Shown here piece by piece: positions 11,360-20,106 of a DNA stretch of 21,942 nt. This stretch comes from Candidatus Odinarchaeia archaeon (lineage in GTDB: Archaea; Asgardarchaeota; Odinarchaeia; Odinarchaeales; Odinarchaeaceae), in NCBI GenBank assembly GCA_029856525.1, contig JAHQXC010000014.1, positions 1 to 21,942 of the forward strand, in the 5' to 3' direction. The stretch's first letter is position 1. Each line of letters starts with the position of its first letter. The notes under the pieces were generated by a model. It worked only from the letters and a program-made list of their open reading frames with translations. It ran no database searches and had not been told where the DNA came from. The translations under genes were made by a program, and so were the position numbers.

Positions 11360-14300
11360 TTGACTAAAATACGTCGGCTAACTATTCTACTGCTTTTATT
11401 TTTAATAATACCGTTTATATTTCAACCTGTTAAGATTACAGGGCAACCTGTTAGCGGCGTCCCCTTCGAGGTTAAACCGGTTGGAATAGTTTTCAGTAAT
11501 TTAAGTTTAAGCTGGAAGCAGGTAGGTTATGATAATTCTAATATCTCCGCTCCCGTTATACTGCCTTTCTACGTGGTTGAAAGCCATATTTACATGGCTG
11601 GTTTAAGATTCGAAGTCCTCCCCGAGGAGAATATAACTAGCAGCGGGGTCTTAGAGAGATATTCGTGTATAATACTACCCGAGAACACTTATATCTCTAA
11701 TAGCAGCCGGCTTACATTATTAAATTATTATAGAGAATACTTAGAGAACGGTGGAAGCATAATAGGATTCGGTTATATAGGTGTGAAAGATGAAAACAAC
11801 ACTTTCTATGCGAATAGAGATTTATTTTGGAGGGAGCTTTTCAACGTTAAAGATAACGGCTTCCTGAACTTAAGTTATTCGATTAAAACGCTCAGCCATC
11901 CTATAACAGCCGACTATTCATTAAATACGACTATTCACAGCGGAGGCTTCGGCTTAGATAATATTACTGTTAATTCAACTTTGATAAATACGCAGCCTTT
12001 TCTTAAAGCTGTAGCTAATGAGACAGGTGTCTTTCTAACATATTGCGGTTTCGCTTCACAGATAGGTGCCGGTAGAAGCGTGTTCATAAACGTTTACGAT
12101 CTCGGATTGAACCCGTGGTTTGACCGGTCGACTCTTCTATTAAAAGCCTTGCAATGGTGTATATTCAGAGATTATCCTGCTATAGCTTTACAGCCGACTT
12201 CCGGCCGTTTAACATGGATTTTCACCGTAGACCAGGACTGGTGTTTCGCTACAGTGAACACAACTAACGCTTTAAGAAGACTGTTAACTTTAGCTGATAC
12301 ATATTATTTCACATTCGGCTGGGCGATTATAAGCGAGGGGCCTGTTAAACAATCAGGTGAATTTTACGGCTTCATAAATTGGAGTGCATGTAAACCTTTA
12401 TTTTTAGAAGCATATCGTAAAGGAAATGATTTAGCATCCCACTCCGTTACTCATGTTTACTGGGATTTAACACCTGTAACCGACCTGAGAGTTTTAAACG
12501 AGCTTAATTTAAGCAAGCATCAGATTGAAGGGAATCTTAGTATACCGGTAACCGGGTTACAGGTCTGGGGGCCCGGGATCTGGTTCAGCCGTTATAATGC
12601 ATCAGTTTATCTTCCACAGGTAGGCTACCAGTATGTAACAGAGTTAAGCGTGGAAGACTTCCCGTATTTAATGGGATGGGAGTTTTACTATTCAGGTGGC
12701 GGGAACATAGACTTTAATAAAACTGTTTTCGTTTTATTCAGGCAATCCTACTCAGATCATAATTATTTCAGTCCAACTCAGATGAATCTTAACTGGAGTC
12801 GGGCTTGGGAGATTGAGAGGAGGAATTTCGATGACGCGTATCGAATCGGTAACGGTATGCCTTACACGCTTCTCTGGCATGACTATTCTATAGATAATTC
12901 AAGCCGTCTACCTTTATTATATAATATATTAGACTATGAGCTCTGGCAGAGACGGGATGTCTACACTTGTACACCCTACGAGTATTATCATAGGATTCAA
13001 GCGCATGATATGATGAAATATAATGTAACATATTACTCGAATAACACTATCCGGATTAATCTAGACACGCGTAGCGTTAGCGATGAATACTTAGATTATA
13101 TAGCAGGTCAGATGATAAGATTTGATAATCTCAGCTTATACGTTAAAACTGTGAGAATAGACTCGCAGGAATACCTCGCTTACTCTAATAACACGGTTAT
13201 ATTGCCGAAGCTTACTAGAGGCGTTCACACGATAACTGTGACCTTGGACAGTCAGCCGTCGAATCAACCGCATATCATCGGCTGCACAGCCGGGGGCCCG
13301 GTAGTCGCCTCTTCTACAAGCGAGTTTTTCGCGTTCAACTTTACAAGTCCGAAGCAGAGAATTGGACGAGTACTCGTAGAGTTGAATAATACGCCGGTGA
13401 CCATATTCGTGAATAGAACACTGACAGATAAATGGTTTTATGACGGTAAGACTCTTATTTTAGCTTTAAACATTTCAGGTGACACGCTTATAGAGGTTTA
13501 TTATTCACGCCGTTTCACTGCGAGTATATTAAACGTGGATAAGAGAATATATTTTCCAAGTGATCCTGTGATTGTAAACTATACTTTAACTAACAGTTAT
13601 CCCTTCCCGTTGAATCTTAAAATTAAAGCGGTTATCTCAGCTTCGAATATAAGTCTAGGTGAAAGTGAGACTGTTTTAACTATAGGCGCTGGGCGTGAAT
13701 ATAACGGGTTGATAACTGTTCAACCTCAATCCGGGTGGCCTTCAACTAATTTAAACGTTGAAATAAAAGTGATATCAGGTTACGCGGTGTTATACTCTAC
13801 TTCTTCAGTCGGCGGCGTATACGTTTACTGGTTTAACGGTGAGCTTTTAATCGCGTCACTGAGTTTTATAGCTGTTTTCACAGTGATAATCGCTTTCACT
13901 AATAGGTTTATCGGATCTGAGAAAATTAAGAAAATCGGCGGATTCTTCATCAACGGTTTATTCGCTGCAACCCCTCTAGTATTCAATTTAGGATTAGTAT
14001 TATTATTAGGATACCATTACAGTCAAATATTAAACCCTGTTGAAACAAATATTTTAGCTTTAATCTACAGTATTATAATCCCGGTTGCTTTCACATTCTA
14101 CGGTTTAGATTATTTAACAAGAAAATACACTTTAGAAGCAGCGTTGTCTGAGGATTCAGCTCTTACAAAGAAATATGTTAAGCAAAGTCTTTTAACAAGC
14201 TTTTATATTTCGATCACAGTTACAATTGTTCTCTTATTATTCTCCATATTCACCGGGTTAATCTCTTTAGAAACGGTTTTACCGGCTTTAATCTGTATTA

Positions 14301-15253
14301 TACCGAATATATTCCTTTTATGTTTTATAGGAGCGTATAAGGCTTTAAACAAGCTGCATATAGTCGCCGCTGTCTATCTTACCGCTATAGCTTCGATGAT
14401 AGTGGTTTCCTTATATACGTCTTACTACACAGGTTTACTCGGTGTCATATCCTCTTATAGTATAAGTCTTATTTTAGCATGTGTTTTCCTAGCAGTCTAC
14501 CTTTTTAACCGTGTTCTTAAACCTGGTGGGCTGCCGTTAATTGAACCCGTCTTCTATACTAAACTGTTTAAAGAATCTGGTTTCAATTTGAAAGCTATTA
14601 TTTTAGGCGGTTTAATAATCAACCTGTTCATGTTAACAAGCTACCTGGTTTGGTTCATTTACGGCTGGAGTGTGACCGGTTATAGTGTGCTCTTGAACTC
14701 TCAGCTTCAAACACCGATAGTTATCTTCCAGTTAACTGTTTTCCCTGTGATAGGTGTAGCCGGGCTTTTAATTCGAAGGGTTGAAGAATACCTTAACGAG
14801 TTTAGTCGTCAGAAACTGTCTAAGAGGAAGGAGGCTGTGAACGCTTATAAAGATGTTTTAAAAGCTTATAGAAGACTGATTATAGGCGTCTCCGCCACCG
14901 CGATTATAACAGTCACACCTATCTCATATTTTTTGAAGGAGATTCTCTCATTCTTCAACCTTACTTTAAATATCACTTTGATAGATGTTGCCGCGCTTGC
15001 AGTGGGCTGGGTGTTATTCTCAATTCTTTTAGCTCAAATATTGTTTACAGCGATGATCAGTCTTAAATCAGGTTGTCTCAGCTTAATTATAGCTGTAGCT
15101 TTAACTCTTATCATATCTTTCACTCTACTTTTAACAGGTTTCTTAACCGCGTATACGAGTATTTTAACAGGGTTCGCAGCCGGTTTAACAGCGGCTTTAT
15201 TCTACTCGACGTTAATTGTTTTAAGAAGATTAAAACAGGTTTCACGGTTTTAG
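11360..15253 (+). CDS. Membrane-anchored polysaccharide deacetylase (PelA-DA-like) fused to a PelG-like multi-TM exporter
   Basis: Signal peptide and GATase-like/ThuA-like segment (YLENGGSIIG). CE4-like motifs TVDQD (about 12224), HSVTH (12440-12454) and LLWHD (about 12878). Ig-like segment and about 28 N-x-S/T sequons by hand count. The last ~440 aa are highly hydrophobic and start with a PelG-like pattern (GLFAATPLVFNL...YGLDYLTRKY). Confidence 0.65.
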   Translation: MTKIRRLTILLLLFLIIPFIFQPVKITGQPVSGVPFEVKPVGIVFSNLSLSWKQVGYDNSNISAPVILPFYVVESHIYMAGLRFEVLPEENITSSGVLERYSCIILPENTYISNSSRLTLLNYYREYLENGGSIIGFGYIGVKDENNTFYANRDLFWRELFNVKDNGFLNLSYSIKTLSHPITADYSLNTTIHSGGFGLDNITVNSTLINTQPFLKAVANETGVFLTYCGFASQIGAGRSVFINVYDLGLNPWFDRSTLLLKALQWCIFRDYPAIALQPTSGRLTWIFTVDQDWCFATVNTTNALRRLLTLADTYYFTFGWAIISEGPVKQSGEFYGFINWSACKPLFLEAYRKGNDLASHSVTHVYWDLTPVTDLRVLNELNLSKHQIEGNLSIPVTGLQVWGPGIWFSRYNASVYLPQVGYQYVTELSVEDFPYLMGWEFYYSGGGNIDFNKTVFVLFRQSYSDHNYFSPTQMNLNWSRAWEIERRNFDDAYRIGNGMPYTLLWHDYSIDNSSRLPLLYNILDYELWQRRDVYTCTPYEYYHRIQAHDMMKYNVTYYSNNTIRINLDTRSVSDEYLDYIAGQMIRFDNLSLYVKTVRIDSQEYLAYSNNTVILPKLTRGVHTITVTLDSQPSNQPHIIGCTAGGPVVASSTSEFFAFNFTSPKQRIGRVLVELNNTPVTIFVNRTLTDKWFYDGKTLILALNISGDTLIEVYYSRRFTASILNVDKRIYFPSDPVIVNYTLTNSYPFPLNLKIKAVISASNISLGESETVLTIGAGREYNGLITVQPQSGWPSTNLNVEIKVISGYAVLYSTSSVGGVYVYWFNGELLIASLSFIAVFTVIIAFTNRFIGSEKIKKIGGFFINGLFAATPLVFNLGLVLLLGYHYSQILNPVETNILALIYSIIIPVAFTFYGLDYLTRKYTLEAALSEDSALTKKYVKQSLLTSFYISITVTIVLLLFSIFTGLISLETVLPALICIIPNIFLLCFIGAYKALNKLHIVAAVYLTAIASMIVVSLYTSYYTGLLGVISSYSISLILACVFLAVYLFNRVLKPGGLPLIEPVFYTKLFKESGFNLKAIILGGLIINLFMLTSYLVWFIYGWSVTGYSVLLNSQLQTPIVIFQLTVFPVIGVAGLLIRRVEEYLNEFSRQKLSKRKEAVNAYKDVLKAYRRLIIGVSATAIITVTPISYFLKEILSFFNLTLNITLIDVAALAVGWVLFSILLAQILFTAMISLKSGCLSLIIAVALTLIISFTLLLTGFLTAYTSILTGFAAGLTAALFYSTLIVLRRLKQVSRF

Positions 15254-16255
15254 AGGGTAACCGCAGTAAGGGCAGAATTTGAAGTCGCGTTTTACAAGTC
15301 TTTTACATTTAACGCATAAAAGGTTGGGTAGATCTGTAAAACAGTAGGGGCAGATCTTCATATGAGGCTGGATCGTCGACTTACATTTATAGCATTCGAC
15401 GAGCATGCTAGTTTTTAAGCCGTCTGATTCTTTAACCTGTGATTTAATTTTTTTAATAGTGTCAGATTTCTTTAAACCTAATTGTTTACGTATAAGCTCG
15501 ACGGGCACTCCTCTAATCAACTGCAAGTATATAAAAGTGTTTCTAAGGGTTTGCGGGGTAATCTTATAGGGTATACTGCAGGTTTTAGAAAGCTTCTCCG
15601 TGATATTCTTGAATATAAAGTTTAGGGTTGCGTAGCTTAACTTATCATGGGCTTTATTAACGCCGGTTGAGAAGATTAGGTCATCTTCTTTTAAATAGCT
15701 TTTAGAATTGATGTAATCTGTAAGATAGGTTTGAACTATATCTGGAAGGTTTAAAACTCTATAAGGTGGGAGAGGGGACATTATAATCGACTGTTCGAAA
15801 ATATTCTTTTTACGTAGATTAATAAGCTCAGATGTTCTAATACCTGTCTCCGTGAATAATGCGATGATAACTCTGTCACGCGGGTTATCTGTGCATTCGT
15901 ATAATGCTTTAAGCTGTTCTACGCTGAGGAAGCAGGGTTCTCTTATAGGATAAGATTTAGGATAGGTTACTTTCACGTTCAAGCCGAGCTCTCTTAGAAA
16001 ACGTTGAATAACGCGACTGTAGCGTGTAACGGTGGATGGTTTTTTACCCTGGTTTAAAAGGTTTATCTGCCAGTCTTGTATGTCGACGTCTTCTACTTGT
16101 TTAAGATCTTTACCGTTAATTTTTTTTAAAAAAAGTTTTAGAATTTTAACCTCGCCTTCAATCGTTGACTCTGATTTACCCTGCTCGCCTAGTGTTTTAA
16201 TGTATTTTTCAACGTAAACGTTTTCTTTAAAAGACATGTTATTAAAATTAACCAT
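15242..16255 (-). CDS. Xer-like tyrosine recombinase fold with degenerate active site and C-terminal double zinc ribbon
   Basis: ETGIRTSELINL and ITPQTLRNTF, LGL in place of LGH, and no catalytic Tyr. C-terminus CYKC..CPYC..CVKC..CPYCG. Overlaps the convergent gene by 12 bp. Confidence 0.85.
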   Translation of the reverse strand: MVNFNNMSFKENVYVEKYIKTLGEQGKSESTIEGEVKILKLFLKKINGKDLKQVEDVDIQDWQINLLNQGKKPSTVTRYSRVIQRFLRELGLNVKVTYPKSYPIREPCFLSVEQLKALYECTDNPRDRVIIALFTETGIRTSELINLRKKNIFEQSIIMSPLPPYRVLNLPDIVQTYLTDYINSKSYLKEDDLIFSTGVNKAHDKLSYATLNFIFKNITEKLSKTCSIPYKITPQTLRNTFIYLQLIRGVPVELIRKQLGLKKSDTIKKIKSQVKESDGLKTSMLVECYKCKSTIQPHMKICPYCFTDLPNLLCVKCKRLVKRDFKFCPYCGYPLKP

Positions 16256-16261
16256 AAAACT

Positions 16262-17572
16262 TTAATAAATTTTAGGTTTCCCTGAGAGATTGAAGTAAAC
16301 TTTACGATAAGCGTTTATAAACAGGCTCTCTGAGAAACGGTTAACTATTCTCTCTCTAGCTTTTAAACCGGCTTCACGTTTATACTCAGGGTTTCGTAGA
16401 TAGAATAATATGGATTTAGCCATCAACTTATATTCACCAGGGTTTACAAGTAATCCGCATTCGTCTACAGGTTCTGGGACCCCTCCCACTCTTGTAGCTA
16501 CTACAGGTATGCCGGCGCTCATCGCTTCAAGTAAAGCTAGAGGCTGAGCTTCAGATATGCTTGAAAGAGCGAAGACATGGAATCTAGAATATAATTTCTC
16601 GGGCGTGTATGTTTCAGGTAGGATGTGAAAGTGGTCTTCTAATCCGAGTTCTTCTATTAAAGCTACGGTTTCGTTATAGTAGTCTAAGTCTTCTTTCGGA
16701 CCGATGAACTCGAATCGAACATTAGGCTGCTTATCCACTACAAGGCGGGCTGCTTTAATCAGTGTTTTAACATCTTTTATAGGGTTTAATCTAGCTACGG
16801 TTCCAACTGTTAACTCTTCACTCTGCTCGCCGTCCTTGTTTCCGGTGAAAAGATTATAATCGACGCCGTTAGGTATAGGCTTAATCTTCTTATAATCTGC
16901 TCCAAGCTTCAATTCAATTGGGATGTGAGCTCCGGTAACCGGGGCTATTATATCAGCTGATTTAAAAGAGAATTCTACGAGTTTACCTATGAATTTAAGC
17001 AGTCTAATCTGAGTGTGGTCTTCTGGTTTTAATATTTTAGGGTGGCGTAGTTCATCGGGGAAATCTACTCTGCTAAGTCTTAGAACCCATTCTTTATAAT
17101 ATGATCCGTGCTCGGTGACTATTACAGGTTTATTATATATTCGCTTAGCTAGACCTGCGATTAAACCAGCGTAACCCGCGTTTAAAGCATGGTAGACGTC
17201 TGCTTCAGGGATCGGTACGTTGAAAACTCTCTCTAAGGGTTTTATGAATCCTTCATTCAAATATGTGTTTGTTTGAAAACGTGAGGCTTCAGCTTGAAAA
17301 AACTGTTTAATTTTTCTAGCTGAATCATTCTCGCATGGTTGAATGCCTTGCTCGCTAGACTCAGAGTTGAAGTCCTCCCATATAGGATGTAAGTATACTT
17401 CTTTAACGTTTTTAGGAGGCTTATAATTAAATTTTATTCTTCTATCAGGGGTTAGGGAGATTATCTCGAACTCTACATCCGGCATCTTAGATATTAAGGT
17501 ATGTGTCCATTTGCTGACTCCGCCTATTGAAAGCGGATAGGTGCCTTCTGTGATCAAGCAGACCTTAGTCAT
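16262..17572 (-). CDS. pelF: GT4-family glycosyltransferase PelF (DUF3492 + GT-B)
   Basis: VCLITEGTYPLSIGGVSKWTHTLI, YHALNAGYAG, VTEHGSYYKE and SSISEAQPLALLEA closely follow PelF signature motifs. Confidence 0.8.
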   Translation of the reverse strand: MTKVCLITEGTYPLSIGGVSKWTHTLISKMPDVEFEIISLTPDRRIKFNYKPPKNVKEVYLHPIWEDFNSESSEQGIQPCENDSARKIKQFFQAEASRFQTNTYLNEGFIKPLERVFNVPIPEADVYHALNAGYAGLIAGLAKRIYNKPVIVTEHGSYYKEWVLRLSRVDFPDELRHPKILKPEDHTQIRLLKFIGKLVEFSFKSADIIAPVTGAHIPIELKLGADYKKIKPIPNGVDYNLFTGNKDGEQSEELTVGTVARLNPIKDVKTLIKAARLVVDKQPNVRFEFIGPKEDLDYYNETVALIEELGLEDHFHILPETYTPEKLYSRFHVFALSSISEAQPLALLEAMSAGIPVVATRVGGVPEPVDECGLLVNPGEYKLMAKSILFYLRNPEYKREAGLKARERIVNRFSESLFINAYRKVYFNLSGKPKIY

Positions 17573-17582
17573 ACGGCCACCA

Positions 17583-17603
17583 TTATGTAGTTATACTACA
17601 TAA
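17583..17603. promoter_or_regulatory. Inverted repeat TTATGTAGT-TAT-ACTACATAA over the predicted pelF transcription start
   Basis: Perfect 9-bp arms centred about 25 nt downstream of the minus-strand TATA-like TTTTTAAA (about 17626-17619) and 10 nt upstream of the pelF ATG. Confidence 0.55.
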
Positions 17604-17646
17604 CAATAGTCAAACACGTTTAAAAACCTTACGTAAAGTAGCGAAA

Positions 17647-17877
17647 CTAAGAAGCGCAGCCTATAAAATCACATGGTTTATACATGTCATTAAAATAAAG
17701 AGCATCAATTATATTATCTTCTACGCCTTCTGAGTCATCAGAATCCACTGAAACACTTATAGACGGGAGATAGCTGGACATGAAACCTCTTAAAATTAGA
17801 CTCCGCTGTAATGTTAGACATCGCCTGATTTTTTCGAATAAAGATTCGATTTCGTATTCTAGCGACATAATGCTCAC
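17647..17877 (-). CDS. Hypothetical small acidic protein (76 aa, or 73 aa from ATG 17868)
   Basis: Fills an otherwise empty gap, is co-oriented with its neighbours and has TTTATATA 23 nt upstream. No family recognised. Confidence 0.45.
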   Translation of the reverse strand: MSIMSLEYEIESLFEKIRRCLTLQRSLILRGFMSSYLPSISVSVDSDDSEGVEDNIIDALYFNDMYKPCDFIGCAS

Positions 17878-17950
17878 TTATAAAATTAGCAATATGTTAT
17901 ATATAAATTTTTCTAAAATCTCAAAATAGGAAATAAAAAATTGCGAAAAA

Positions 17951-18439
17951 CTATATTATACCTGAATCCCTTATCATCTTTAAATGATCGAAAGCCAGCT
18001 GCAGGCTAGAAACCTCTTCAACACTGAAAACGCGTATGTCAGCAGCGTCACTGCTAGCCTTTAAGACACCGTTTAAAAACTCGCATAGAAAACAAATAGA
18101 GATAACATGGCCGCGCGGATCCCTGTTTGGATTAGAGTAAACACCTACAAGCCTGTTAATTTTAACAGTTAAACCTGTCTCCTCGGCGACCTCTCTAAGC
18201 AAAGCATCTTCCACAGTCTCCCCGTATTTCACTATACCACCGGGAAGCGCCCAGAATTCTTTAAAAGGTGGGAAACGTCTTTTAATAAGTACGATTCTAC
18301 CAGGCTCAAATAATATTATGCCGTCGACGGCCACAGTCGGCTGCGCTGGAAAATTAGACTCATCCCAGCTTCCAATATTAGTTTTCGATTTAGCTAGAAG
18401 CTCAGTTAATTTATCAGCGATACTCTCTCTATCCGCCAA
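17951..18439 (-). CDS. Nudix hydrolase (ADP-ribose pyrophosphatase-like)
   Basis: Nudix box GGIVKYGETVEDALLREVAEETG, plus WALPGG and RDPRGH. Confidence 0.92.
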   Translation of the reverse strand: MADRESIADKLTELLAKSKTNIGSWDESNFPAQPTVAVDGIILFEPGRIVLIKRRFPPFKEFWALPGGIVKYGETVEDALLREVAEETGLTVKINRLVGVYSNPNRDPRGHVISICFLCEFLNGVLKASSDAADIRVFSVEEVSSLQLAFDHLKMIRDSGII

Positions 18440-18468
18440 AAGTAAACCCCTCTTATAGTAGGAGAGTG

Positions 18469-20106
18469 TTAAGTTAACCCGTAAAACTTTTTATAAATCT
18501 CTGAAGAAGTCAGCGCTTTAATATCCCTTTTATAATAGCCGTCTCTTAGCTTACGCCCGGTTTTAGCCTCCCACTCTTCTATACTTAAACCATACTTAGG
18601 TTGAATCACATCCCTGTACAACATTGAAAGTGTGTTAAAAGCGCAGAATGGAATTAAACGGTCGTCAGGGGACAGATAAATAATATTACACCTCTTCACC
18701 CTGTTTACATCATAATTATATAAGTCCATGAAATGCATCATGCCCAGAAATAGAGTCTTCATGTGAAAGTCGCCTAGAGCAGAGTAATCATGCTGCATGA
18801 TAATTTTTAAAAGCATTCTAGTAATCTTCAAATCTTTAGGTTTCCTCTCATTATCAATGAACTTTCTTAAATTATATAAAAGTTTTAAACCAACCCAGTA
18901 CTTGCTCTTCCCTTTCTCTAGTTCATCAGCTTTCTCCGCGAGGTACTCGAAGAACCCGTCTATGTCGATAAACTGGGGTATAGGAACATACTTCCCGTCA
19001 TCTAGGAAAACATATGTGCCTAGACCGCATGCGAAATGGTTTGTAAAGTTTAGCTGCTGCCGTTTAGTTATCGCTGAAACGATTCGGCTAATCGCGCCTA
19101 CACACGGCACAGTATACCAGTCATCTTTAGTTATCTGCCCGTTCGTCTGCTCTTCGATTCTTTGAATAACATCTGTTGAAGTGATTCTAAGTTTATCCTT
19201 TTCAGCTCTAGTTATCCTGCCGGTTAAAGAGACGGGTTGAAAGTTAACCCCGCGAACCACATCCAGGTTTCTGAAAGCTACATCTATAATATTACCTAGG
19301 TCATGGTCGTTAACAGAGTTGATAACAGTAGGCACGAACACAATCCCCATGCGGCCGGCTTCCCTGCAGTTTTGAACTACGAAGGGCACCTCCCAGTGGT
19401 TCTTAGGATTAGTTTCAGGCGATACACCGTCGAAGCTTAAATAGACAGTGTTAACTCCAGCGGCTCTAATCTGCTTCGCGAACTCTTTATCCATTGCTAG
19501 CCTTAAACCATCCGTGTTAAATTGAATATGGCGGACACCCTCTTCTCGAATAGCTTTAATAACTTCTATAATATCTTCGCGTATAGAGGGCTCTCCTCCT
19601 GTGATTTGAACCGCTAACCCTGGGACCGGTGTTACGCTACGGAAATTTCTAACCATACGCCTAATCTCATCGATGCTAGGCTCGAAAACATAACCAGCTT
19701 TCTCAGCGAAGAAGAAGCAATACCAGCAGTTTAGATCACACCTGTTGGTGACGACTAGATTCGCTAAAGCTGGCCCGCTTAAATGAATCTTGCAGAAACC
19801 GCAGCTTAAAGGACAGACAGGGTTCTCGGATCGATTATAAGGGTTGCCTATACCGTAGCCGTCTTGAGCGTATTTACGGCTCTTCAAATATAATTCAACT
19901 GAACTCCAGTAAATCTCCTCGATATCCCCGTGCACATCACATCTTCTAGTAATATATACTTTTCCATCTCTTGAAATAATTTTAGCCGGGAGAATCTTAT
20001 AAACACCGTTAATCCAACACTCAGGGCAAATCGACTCAGTTAAATCTAGAATATTCTCCTCTCTACCTGTAGTAGGCGTCGTGGTTGAAATTCTTTTAGC
20101 GGTCAT
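18469..20106 (-). CDS. tes: Tetraether lipid synthase Tes / GDGT-MAS (MJ0619-family radical SAM)
   Basis: TESICPEC...RCDVHG, CPLSCGFCKIH, TNRCDLNCWYC, QITGGEP, HFACG and RCNIIY..DRLIPFC give the multi-Fe-site architecture of Tes. Confidence 0.85.
   Translation of the reverse strand: MTAKRISTTTPTTGREENILDLTESICPECWINGVYKILPAKIISRDGKVYITRRCDVHGDIEEIYWSSVELYLKSRKYAQDGYGIGNPYNRSENPVCPLSCGFCKIHLSGPALANLVVTNRCDLNCWYCFFFAEKAGYVFEPSIDEIRRMVRNFRSVTPVPGLAVQITGGEPSIREDIIEVIKAIREEGVRHIQFNTDGLRLAMDKEFAKQIRAAGVNTVYLSFDGVSPETNPKNHWEVPFVVQNCREAGRMGIVFVPTVINSVNDHDLGNIIDVAFRNLDVVRGVNFQPVSLTGRITRAEKDKLRITSTDVIQRIEEQTNGQITKDDWYTVPCVGAISRIVSAITKRQQLNFTNHFACGLGTYVFLDDGKYVPIPQFIDIDGFFEYLAEKADELEKGKSKYWVGLKLLYNLRKFIDNERKPKDLKITRMLLKIIMQHDYSALGDFHMKTLFLGMMHFMDLYNYDVNRVKRCNIIYLSPDDRLIPFCAFNTLSMLYRDVIQPKYGLSIEEWEAKTGRKLRDGYYKRDIKALTSSEIYKKFYGLT

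Follow-up and report, generated by a model that had tools for sequence, protein, structure and literature searches.

A Xer-like protein without most catalytic residues and with a double zinc ribbon is selectively maintained in Odinarchaeia

The gene described here encodes a Xer-like protein of the tyrosine recombinase superfamily that carries a C-terminal double zinc ribbon and lacks most of the catalytic residues of its relatives (hereafter dead Xer). It is located on the minus strand of contig JAHQXC010000014.1 (assembly GCA_029856525.1) of Candidatus Odinarchaeia archaeon, positions 1 to 21,942 of which were analyzed as a single stretch of 21,942 nucleotides, termed the window. Judging from sequence comparison, the gene is selectively maintained and is neither a product of recent decay nor a mobile-element gene. 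By analogy to known proteins of similar type, dead Xer probably has a non-catalytic role in DNA binding. The gene and its domains are as follows.

15242 to 16237, minus strand: coding sequence of dead Xer from the conserved start M7 (331 amino acids plus stop codon; the orthologues, of 331 to 335 amino acids, begin at the equivalent of M7)
15986 to 16210, minus strand: N-terminal core-binding (SAM-like) domain, residues ~16 to 90 (weak PF13495 and PF02899 matches; four helices in the AlphaFold2 model)
15455 to 15931, minus strand: catalytic-type domain without catalytic residues, residues 109 to 267 (PF00589, alignments to 5HXY and 4A8E, and column census)
15260 to 15394, minus strand: C-terminal double zinc ribbon, residues 288 to 332 (PF12773; four CxxC pairs)

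The original prediction for this DNA had listed R140 and R238 as the only residues left of the R-K-H-R-H/W-Y set by which an enzyme of this type is recognized, and its inventory proved accurate. Pairwise alignments to XerA structures, a MAFFT alignment with approximately 150 homologues and a direct check of the letters were all in agreement. The first arginine (R140) is kept in the context TGIRTSE, the β-hairpin lysine is replaced (P164 in PLPPYR), the HxxR motif reads QTLR (Q235, R238), and the LGH motif reads LGL (L261). The nucleophile column, which is occupied by tyrosine in 137 of the approximately 150 aligned homologues, corresponds to I270 by ungapped spacing and to K269 or K271 in gapped alignments, and no tyrosine is present anywhere in residues 244 to 288. 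Since neither the nucleophilic tyrosine nor the residues for general acid/base catalysis are left, dead Xer should no longer be able to cut or rejoin DNA. Incomplete catalytic sets are not rare in themselves, as judged from a 180-residue protein of our representative library (P0058), which has the same Q-x-x-R-N and G-L-K-K substitutions as the Odinarchaeum family and keeps the tyrosine, and from several further partly degenerate Xer-like proteins (P0128, P0145, P0078 and P0073).

Orthologues were sought by a search of 5.8 billion proteins and then by an exhaustive HMMER search. The former returned only five close relatives, at 100, 77, 75, 71 and 54% identity, and the latter added a single orthologue at 43% identity (P0008), beyond which the HMMER scores fell from E 7e-85 to E 8e-20, the level of ordinary Xer proteins. 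The exception within this gap was a repetitive protein of 3722 amino acids that aligned solely to the Lys-rich linker. Scans of JGI metagenome contigs and IMG/VR revealed no further family members, and two candidate relatives (G005:C43 and G011:C2) were set aside as ordinary active integrases. All six orthologues are from Odinarchaeia and have P/T164, Q/R235, R238 and L261 in common, and none has a tyrosine at the nucleophile position. Position 140 is lysine in the five other orthologues, the arginine being peculiar to the genome of the window. The eight zinc-ribbon cysteines are invariant in all six, 94 of 331 columns are invariant across the family, and the best-conserved parts are the catalytic-type domain and the zinc ribbon (62% mean pairwise identity). 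Compared to the gene of Ca. O. yellowstonii, the ratio of nonsynonymous to synonymous substitution rates (dN/dS) was 0.125 at a dS of 1.2, which is near saturation; this value falls within the range of 0.04 to 0.20 found for nine neighboring genes in the same comparison.

These results bear directly on two alternatives. Dead Xer might be a decaying pseudogene or the remnant of an integrated element, an explanation favored by the loss of catalytic residues and by nothing beyond it. The reading frame is intact in six lineages, the dN/dS of 0.125 and the 94 invariant columns speak of constraint, the synteny is conserved, and neither a tRNA gene, an att site nor element genes accompany the gene. 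Purifying selection and synteny thus refute this explanation, to which we give almost no credence. The original prediction had named conserved catalytic loss under purifying selection as its test, and close homologs with a full catalytic set, a sign of recent decay, as the outcome that would overturn it; the losses were found in all six orthologues, down to 43% identity, together with a dN/dS of ~0.125, and no orthologue with a full set was detected, so recent decay is not indicated. Its view of a domesticated recombinase fold likewise held up, in that dead Xer is a non-catalytic, selectively maintained Xer-like derivative whose gene lies on the chromosome of a closed genome in a syntenic position. 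Alternatively, the protein could be an active recombinase with an unconventional active site or nucleophile. R238 and R/K140 do persist, and the D265 position, five residues before the canonical nucleophile, is tyrosine in the three most divergent orthologues. In the other three, among them the protein of the window, this position holds Asp or Asn, every member has substitutions at four of the six canonical positions (Pro, Gln/Arg, Leu and Ile/Lys), Y165 is isoleucine in the most distant member, and only two histidines are present in the whole protein. An active enzyme of this kind is, on these counts, extremely improbable.

The open reading frame itself, predicted as intact with eight zinc-ribbon cysteines, was borne out. 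It spans 15242 to 16255 on the minus strand (337 amino acids counted from the first ATG). The frame reaches upstream past M7 (ATG at 16237) to the ATG at 16255, which is not conserved and reads CTG in Ca. O. yellowstonii; M7 is the conserved start, the orthologues all beginning with MSFKEN or a similar sequence. The start had been placed 6 bp past the stop codon of the upstream glycosyltransferase gene (pelF); with M7 as the start, this distance has to be corrected to 24 nt, as in O. yellowstonii. The protein is basic (isoelectric point 9.5). It matches Pfam Phage_integrase (PF00589) over residues 109 to 267 with 45.2 bits (cut-off 27.1) and Pfam DZR (PF12773) over residues 288 to 332 with 41.5 bits (cut-off 27.3), and it belongs to the DZR family by this measure. 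The eight cysteines form four CxxC pairs (288/291, 302/305, 314/317 and 328/331), of which the sequence past residue 280 is made up. Toward the N-terminus, the SAM-like matches are weak (PF13495, PF02899), and the core-binding domain holds an invariant block, WQI.L.N...K.ST..RY.

Structural modeling was consistent with this domain layout. The AlphaFold2 model, built from an alignment of 85 rows, reached a mean predicted local distance difference test score of 92.5 and a predicted template modeling score of 0.87. Modeled residues 1 to 275 superposed on DNA-bound tyrosine recombinases with Z scores of 17 to 19 and a root mean square deviation of 2.8 to 3.8 Å over ~260 residues, including XerH-difH (5JK0; 2.8 Å over 254 residues), Cre-loxP and Tn1549 Int. 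Together with the PF00589 score above the cut-off, this two-domain fold places dead Xer in the tyrosine recombinase superfamily. The closest match in sequence and structure was XerA, for which the enzymes of Thermoplasma acidophilum (5HXY) and Pyrococcus abyssi (4A8E) were the only solved sequence relatives (phmmer E 8e-13 and 3e-10; Z 19.6 and 16.9). Dead Xer has the same two-domain layout as XerA, the same length up to the tyrosine helix and the second arginine, but is without the hairpin lysine, both catalytic histidines (His II and His III) and the tyrosine. Its best NCBIfam model was XerA_Arch (NF040815) at 113.7 bits (114.1 in the genome search), below the cut-off of 220. By this score it is not assigned to XerA. 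A further difference lies at the C-terminus, where the model lacks the αN helix, the element that acts in trans to control the activity of XerA (PMC3646895); the last helix of the model (residues 259 to 267 in 331-residue numbering), the one that normally bears the tyrosine, is followed directly by the zinc ribbon. The double zinc ribbon thus sits where XerA has its trans-acting αN helix. A two-copy homodimer prediction scored 0.04, which gives no verdict, and was not used as evidence either way.

The eight cysteines had been read as a gain in the course of domestication. Their presence stood, but a gain as part of domestication was not supported, because catalytically intact Xer proteins fused to zinc ribbons exist elsewhere, and the ribbon is therefore not tied to catalytic loss. 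In the representative library, P0081 combines the full R-K-H-R-H-Y set with four CxxC pairs; P0021 and P0087 keep the arginine, HxxR, histidine and tyrosine, with Glu or Arg at the hairpin-lysine column, ahead of C-terminal zinc ribbon(s); and P0013 and the P0112/P0143/P0157 group are Xer-like proteins with C-terminal zinc ribbon(s) that keep the tyrosine. Within Asgard archaea, one genome provided an example of a Xer-like zinc-ribbon protein (L021). The fusion of Xer to a zinc ribbon is thus independent of inactivation. Four other proteins (P0079, P0082, P0095 and P0121) matched through the zinc ribbon only and were discarded as generic, uninformative multi-ribbon proteins.

A role in DNA binding would agree with the clamp fold, the phosphate-binding charges, the basic isoelectric point, the purifying selection and several precedents, of which MrpR and TnsF have been characterized by experiment, and on these grounds we consider it the probable function. 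Dead Xer may be envisioned as a vertically inherited pseudo-recombinase, restricted to Odinarchaeia, in which the XerA-type two-domain C-clamp keeps its positive phosphate-binding positions (R/K140 and R238). It would most likely act as a sequence-specific DNA binder, whether by regulating transcription or as an architectural factor, in the manner of MrpR/SroF and TnsF. The best reading is that dead Xer is mechanistically similar to one of these systems. MrpR no longer functions as a recombinase and acts as a repressor that binds a repeated element of 15 bp (PMC10516654). MrpR/YopR of SPβ and SroF of phi3T (PDB 8A0A, 8BPZ and 9RD5) have the recombinase fold with most catalytic residues replaced and are retained as DNA-binding repressors. 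Over residues 1 to 273, dead Xer matched these structures with Z scores of 13 to 14 (14.2 for SroF-DNA, 9RD5; ~13 for YopR/MrpR, 8BPZ and 8A0A). Sequence kinship is undetectable beyond the fold, and MrpR and SroF are phage-encoded bacterial proteins without a zinc ribbon, whereas dead Xer is chromosomal and non-viral, with a function that we infer. TnsF of Tn6022-like Tn7 transposons uses zinc fingers and a tyrosine recombinase domain, the latter inactivated, for the selection of its DNA target (PMC10293859). It resembles dead Xer in joining zinc-binding modules to an inactivated recombinase domain and in having active relatives of the same architecture (Tsy), comparable to the active Xer zinc-ribbon proteins. 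By contrast to the C-terminal ribbon of dead Xer, near which no transposon genes are found, the zinc fingers of TnsF are N-terminal and the protein is transposon-borne. The Crypton-derived genes of animals are host genes that arose from tyrosine recombinases, are under selection and have a proposed DNA-binding role (PMC3212892); they differ in being eukaryotic, transposon-derived and unrelated to dead Xer in sequence.

The best candidate target would be an operator-like motif in front of the gene pair formed by dead Xer and the glycosyltransferase upstream of it.

17583 to 17603, no strand: perfect palindrome TTATGTAGT-ATA-ACTACATAA, preceded by a TATA-like TTTTTAAA and followed, 10 nt downstream, by the ATG of the glycosyltransferase
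16262 to 17572, minus strand: PelF-like GT4 glycosyltransferase of 436 amino acids (DUF3492 and Glycos_transf_1; NF038011 194.7 bits, cut-off 100; PF11997, PF00534)

The palindrome, which had been singled out beforehand, proved to be real, to be conserved at orthologous promoters and to be confined to the genus as a motif. Its arms are invariant in four aligned lineages and present at the orthologous place in two further genomes of the genus, and its flanks diverge. The core TGTAGT-N3-ACTACA occurs in three to four exact copies per Odinarchaeum genome (control pattern, none), compared to zero to one copies, the same as the control, in 27 other, larger Asgard genomes. The further sites in the genome of the window (G000) are at C113:15725-15739, C118:9960-9974 and C33:22860-22874. 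At two of the other sites, orthology extends over three or four genomes; these two lie just downstream of TATA-like boxes, ahead of the genes for a longin-like protein of 150 amino acids and a zinc-ribbon protein of 209 amino acids. The palindrome thus occupies an operator-like position and appears to be the motif of a small regulon. Two features make dead Xer a candidate regulator of this motif: its gene follows the best site, and the taxonomic ranges of motif and protein coincide. Each Odinarchaeum genome also encodes a second PelF-like GT4 paralogue of 475 amino acids (L047:1027-2454 in G000:C14, with equivalents in G001 to G003), 35 to 38% identical to that of the window; its promoter has one good half-site only and was not counted as a motif site.

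Several points weigh against this proposal. DNA binding, the target site and a regulatory role of dead Xer are all matters that we infer. The half-sites of the palindrome are ~9 bp apart center to center, and recombinase C-clamp monomers occupy 11- to 13-bp arms that are 6 to 8 bp apart on dif and lox sites; with half-sites this close, a helix-turn-helix dimer fits better than two C-clamps. The 209-residue protein, whose zinc ribbon is C-terminal, is encoded directly downstream of a second motif copy and is a rival candidate for the regulator. In addition, the joint presence of motif and protein in one genus counts as one evolutionary event and not as a statistical association. Some catalytic activity might also linger in the three lineages with tyrosine at the D265 position, which is unlikely because of the other catalytic losses.

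We also considered whether dead Xer is a descendant of the chromosomal XerA that kept only a role other than recombination, binding a dif-like site and acting in chromosome organization or segregation, for example in unloading or stalling Smc-ScpAB. The genus, a small hot-spring group, was represented by four Odinarchaeum genomes (G000 to G003), including the closed genome of O. yellowstonii; the assembly of the window comprises 127 contigs and is 93% complete, and it is recognizable as Odinarchaeum from genes next to dead Xer, such as those for Tes and the KaiC-type ATPase, and from the origin of the named orthologues in Odinarchaeia. Strong matches to dead Xer among 201 Asgard genomes were limited to this genus and were found in all four of its genomes. 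Canonical XerA (NF040815 above 220 bits) was not found in any of the four, compared to 7 of the 27 genomes of other Asgard archaea that were searched, and dead Xer was the top XerA_Arch match in each (95 to 114 bits) and the sole PF00589 match in G001 (97% complete) and G003. Smc and ScpA are present in Odinarchaeum, and bacterial XerD is reported to unload or stall Smc-ScpAB at XDS sites, a precedent cited in PMC11840125. Against descent from XerA with such a role, the tree (88 rows, quick IQ-TREE) does not group the family with XerA; dead Xer is monophyletic (99) on a long stem, prone to long-branch attraction, without a reliably placed sister group, and with this instability the tree does not decide between descent from XerA and descent from a zinc-ribbon Xer paralogue. 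The sister family in the same order has neither canonical XerA nor dead Xer, and the dif-adjacent domain boundary of Thermococcus kodakarensis is independent of XerA (PMC11840125). A dif-like site, which would be expected of XerA, was also not apparent for dead Xer: the Thermococcales-type pattern (GATATAAT-N6-TTATATC, up to 2 mismatches) was not enriched over the control in the four Odinarchaeum genomes, a result that does not amount to absence because dif sequences vary between lineages. The XerA dif site consists of 11-bp inverted arms and a 6-bp spacer. One recurrent match to the pattern was rejected as a divergent promoter with two TATA boxes. Overall, we regard such a chromosomal role as unlikely. 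The broader scenario, in which Odinarchaeum gave up Xer/dif recombination and kept the XerA scaffold for a non-enzymatic site-specific task, as master regulator of TGTAGT-N3-ACTACA or as chromosome organizer with Smc-ScpAB, is only slightly less doubtful.

Dead Xer could instead be the non-catalytic partner of an active tyrosine recombinase, to which it would provide DNA recognition or synapsis. Two other recombinases of the genus are relevant.

L002:1160-1705 (G000:C25) and G002:C1:1289357-1289863: catalytic-domain-only recombinase of 181 to 194 amino acids, without core-binding domain
L001:1102-2217 (G000:C8): integrase of 371 amino acids, found in the genome of the window only

The short recombinase is encoded by the genome of the window and the closed genome of O. 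yellowstonii; it keeps the arginine, lysine, HxxR and tyrosine and has Asp for His III. In the review PMC8371274, TKV4 is described as being excised when an inactive pTN3 integrase (Y428A) is given in trans, which the authors are said to have interpreted as complementation involving the integrase fragment of the element itself. The short recombinase is present in two of the four genomes and was not found in G001 (97% complete) or G003, and the 371-residue integrase, in which box I reads SGLGVNEL (the first arginine apparently being glycine) and HxxR, histidine and tyrosine are kept, is confined to one genome and is probably part of a mobile element. No partner is thus conserved across the family because both enzymes are patchily present. 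The closed genome adds just the one short recombinase to dead Xer, and it is nearly the case that other tyrosine recombinases are absent from closed genomes that keep the dead Xer gene. A partner role is accordingly rated as very unlikely.

The genomic neighborhood was examined for further indications of function. The gene order is phosphatase, tetraether lipid synthase Tes, NUDIX, small ORF, PelF-like GT4 glycosyltransferase, dead Xer, a convergent gene and then a KaiC-type ATPase and others.

11360 to 15253, plus strand: convergent gene of 1297 amino acids, context only, without Pfam match, the last 12 nt overlapping the 3' end of dead Xer
17647 to 17868, minus strand: small conserved ORF of 73 amino acids, without Pfam match, between the NUDIX gene and the glycosyltransferase promoter
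16256 to 16280, minus strand: conserved 25-nt element GAAACCTAAAATTTATTAAAGTTT(T/C), spanning the glycosyltransferase stop codon (alignment of four lineages)

The order is kept in the closed genome and in two metagenomic lineages. Synteny is full for the O. yellowstonii chromosome and for the 54% lineage, and at 43% identity glycosyltransferase and dead Xer are still paired. In line with the original prediction, no tRNA gene was found in the window and no att-like repeats in positions 13000 to 19000, the stretch searched around the gene; viral contigs yielded no relatives of the protein. The small ORF was called also in O. yellowstonii (73 amino acids) and in two more distant lineages (72 to 107 amino acids). 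The C-terminal membrane part of the 1297-residue protein (458 amino acids, residues 840 to 1297) resembles MOP-superfamily flippases by language-model features (score 0.93 to 0.94), which is a lead only. A pel-like locus had been proposed for this region; its PelF-like GT4 is supported by NF038011 (194.7 bits), and no other Pel family was detected by Pfam in the window. A Pel system would comprise PelA to PelE and PelG besides PelF, and the proposal of such a locus is not supported in the form given.

In each of the six lineages, down to an identity of 43%, the glycosyltransferase lies next to dead Xer, even on a contig with a different nearby order, and this could mean that the dead fold and zinc ribbon form a scaffold or adaptor that binds protein or RNA in place of DNA, possibly the PelF-like glycosyltransferase or the glycan machinery. 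Zinc ribbons do often mediate protein contacts. The adjacency carries little weight, however, because the whole region is collinear among close relatives, and in two other Asgard genomes with a PelF-like GT4 (G028 and G009) no Xer-like match was found on the same contig. The basic protein, moreover, keeps the phosphate-binding R/K and R and is modeled in a DNA-clamp conformation. We judge a scaffold role to be improbable, on a par with the chromosomal role of a XerA descendant.

Co-transcription of dead Xer with the glycosyltransferase is plausible. Between the glycosyltransferase stop codon (16262) and M7 lie 24 nt, as many as in O. yellowstonii, compared to 40 and 59 nt in two more distant lineages. 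The conserved 25-nt element is kept even where it is wholly non-coding (L008 and L027), and its AT-rich center lies 27 to 28 nt before the start codon in three of four lineages and ~28 nt before M7 in the window, which is the spacing that archaeal promoter geometry predicts for a TATA box and a leaderless start. The element is thus possibly the TATA box of a promoter of its own for dead Xer, and co-transcription is not the sole reading because such an element could give the gene its own leaderless transcript. Genome-wide, no convincing second copy of the element was detected in the four genomes, with counts of 1.3 to 4 times the control.

Phages (MrpR/SroF), transposons (TnsF) and animals (Crypton-derived genes) offer documented cases in which a dead tyrosine recombinase was put to new use as a DNA-binding protein. 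In the searchable literature, we found no archaeal or cellular prokaryotic chromosomal example and no paper on the dead Xer family. New to this study are a genus without canonical Xer, the catalytically intact zinc-ribbon relatives, the corrected start codon and the genus-wide operator motif. Among the recombinase-fold proteins of this Asgard genus, which apparently has no canonical XerA, only the dead form is conserved, and this raises the questions of how chromosome dimers are resolved in these archaea and of what a recombinase clamp with a double zinc ribbon recognizes. The genus-specific operator motif provides a concrete first substrate for binding assays. If the broader scenario above were true, a TGTAGT-N3-ACTACA regulon would link the PelF-like glycosyltransferase with the longin-like gene, and dead Xer would be a cellular, vertically inherited exaptation of a chromosome-dimer resolvase in a lineage close to the eukaryotic stem.

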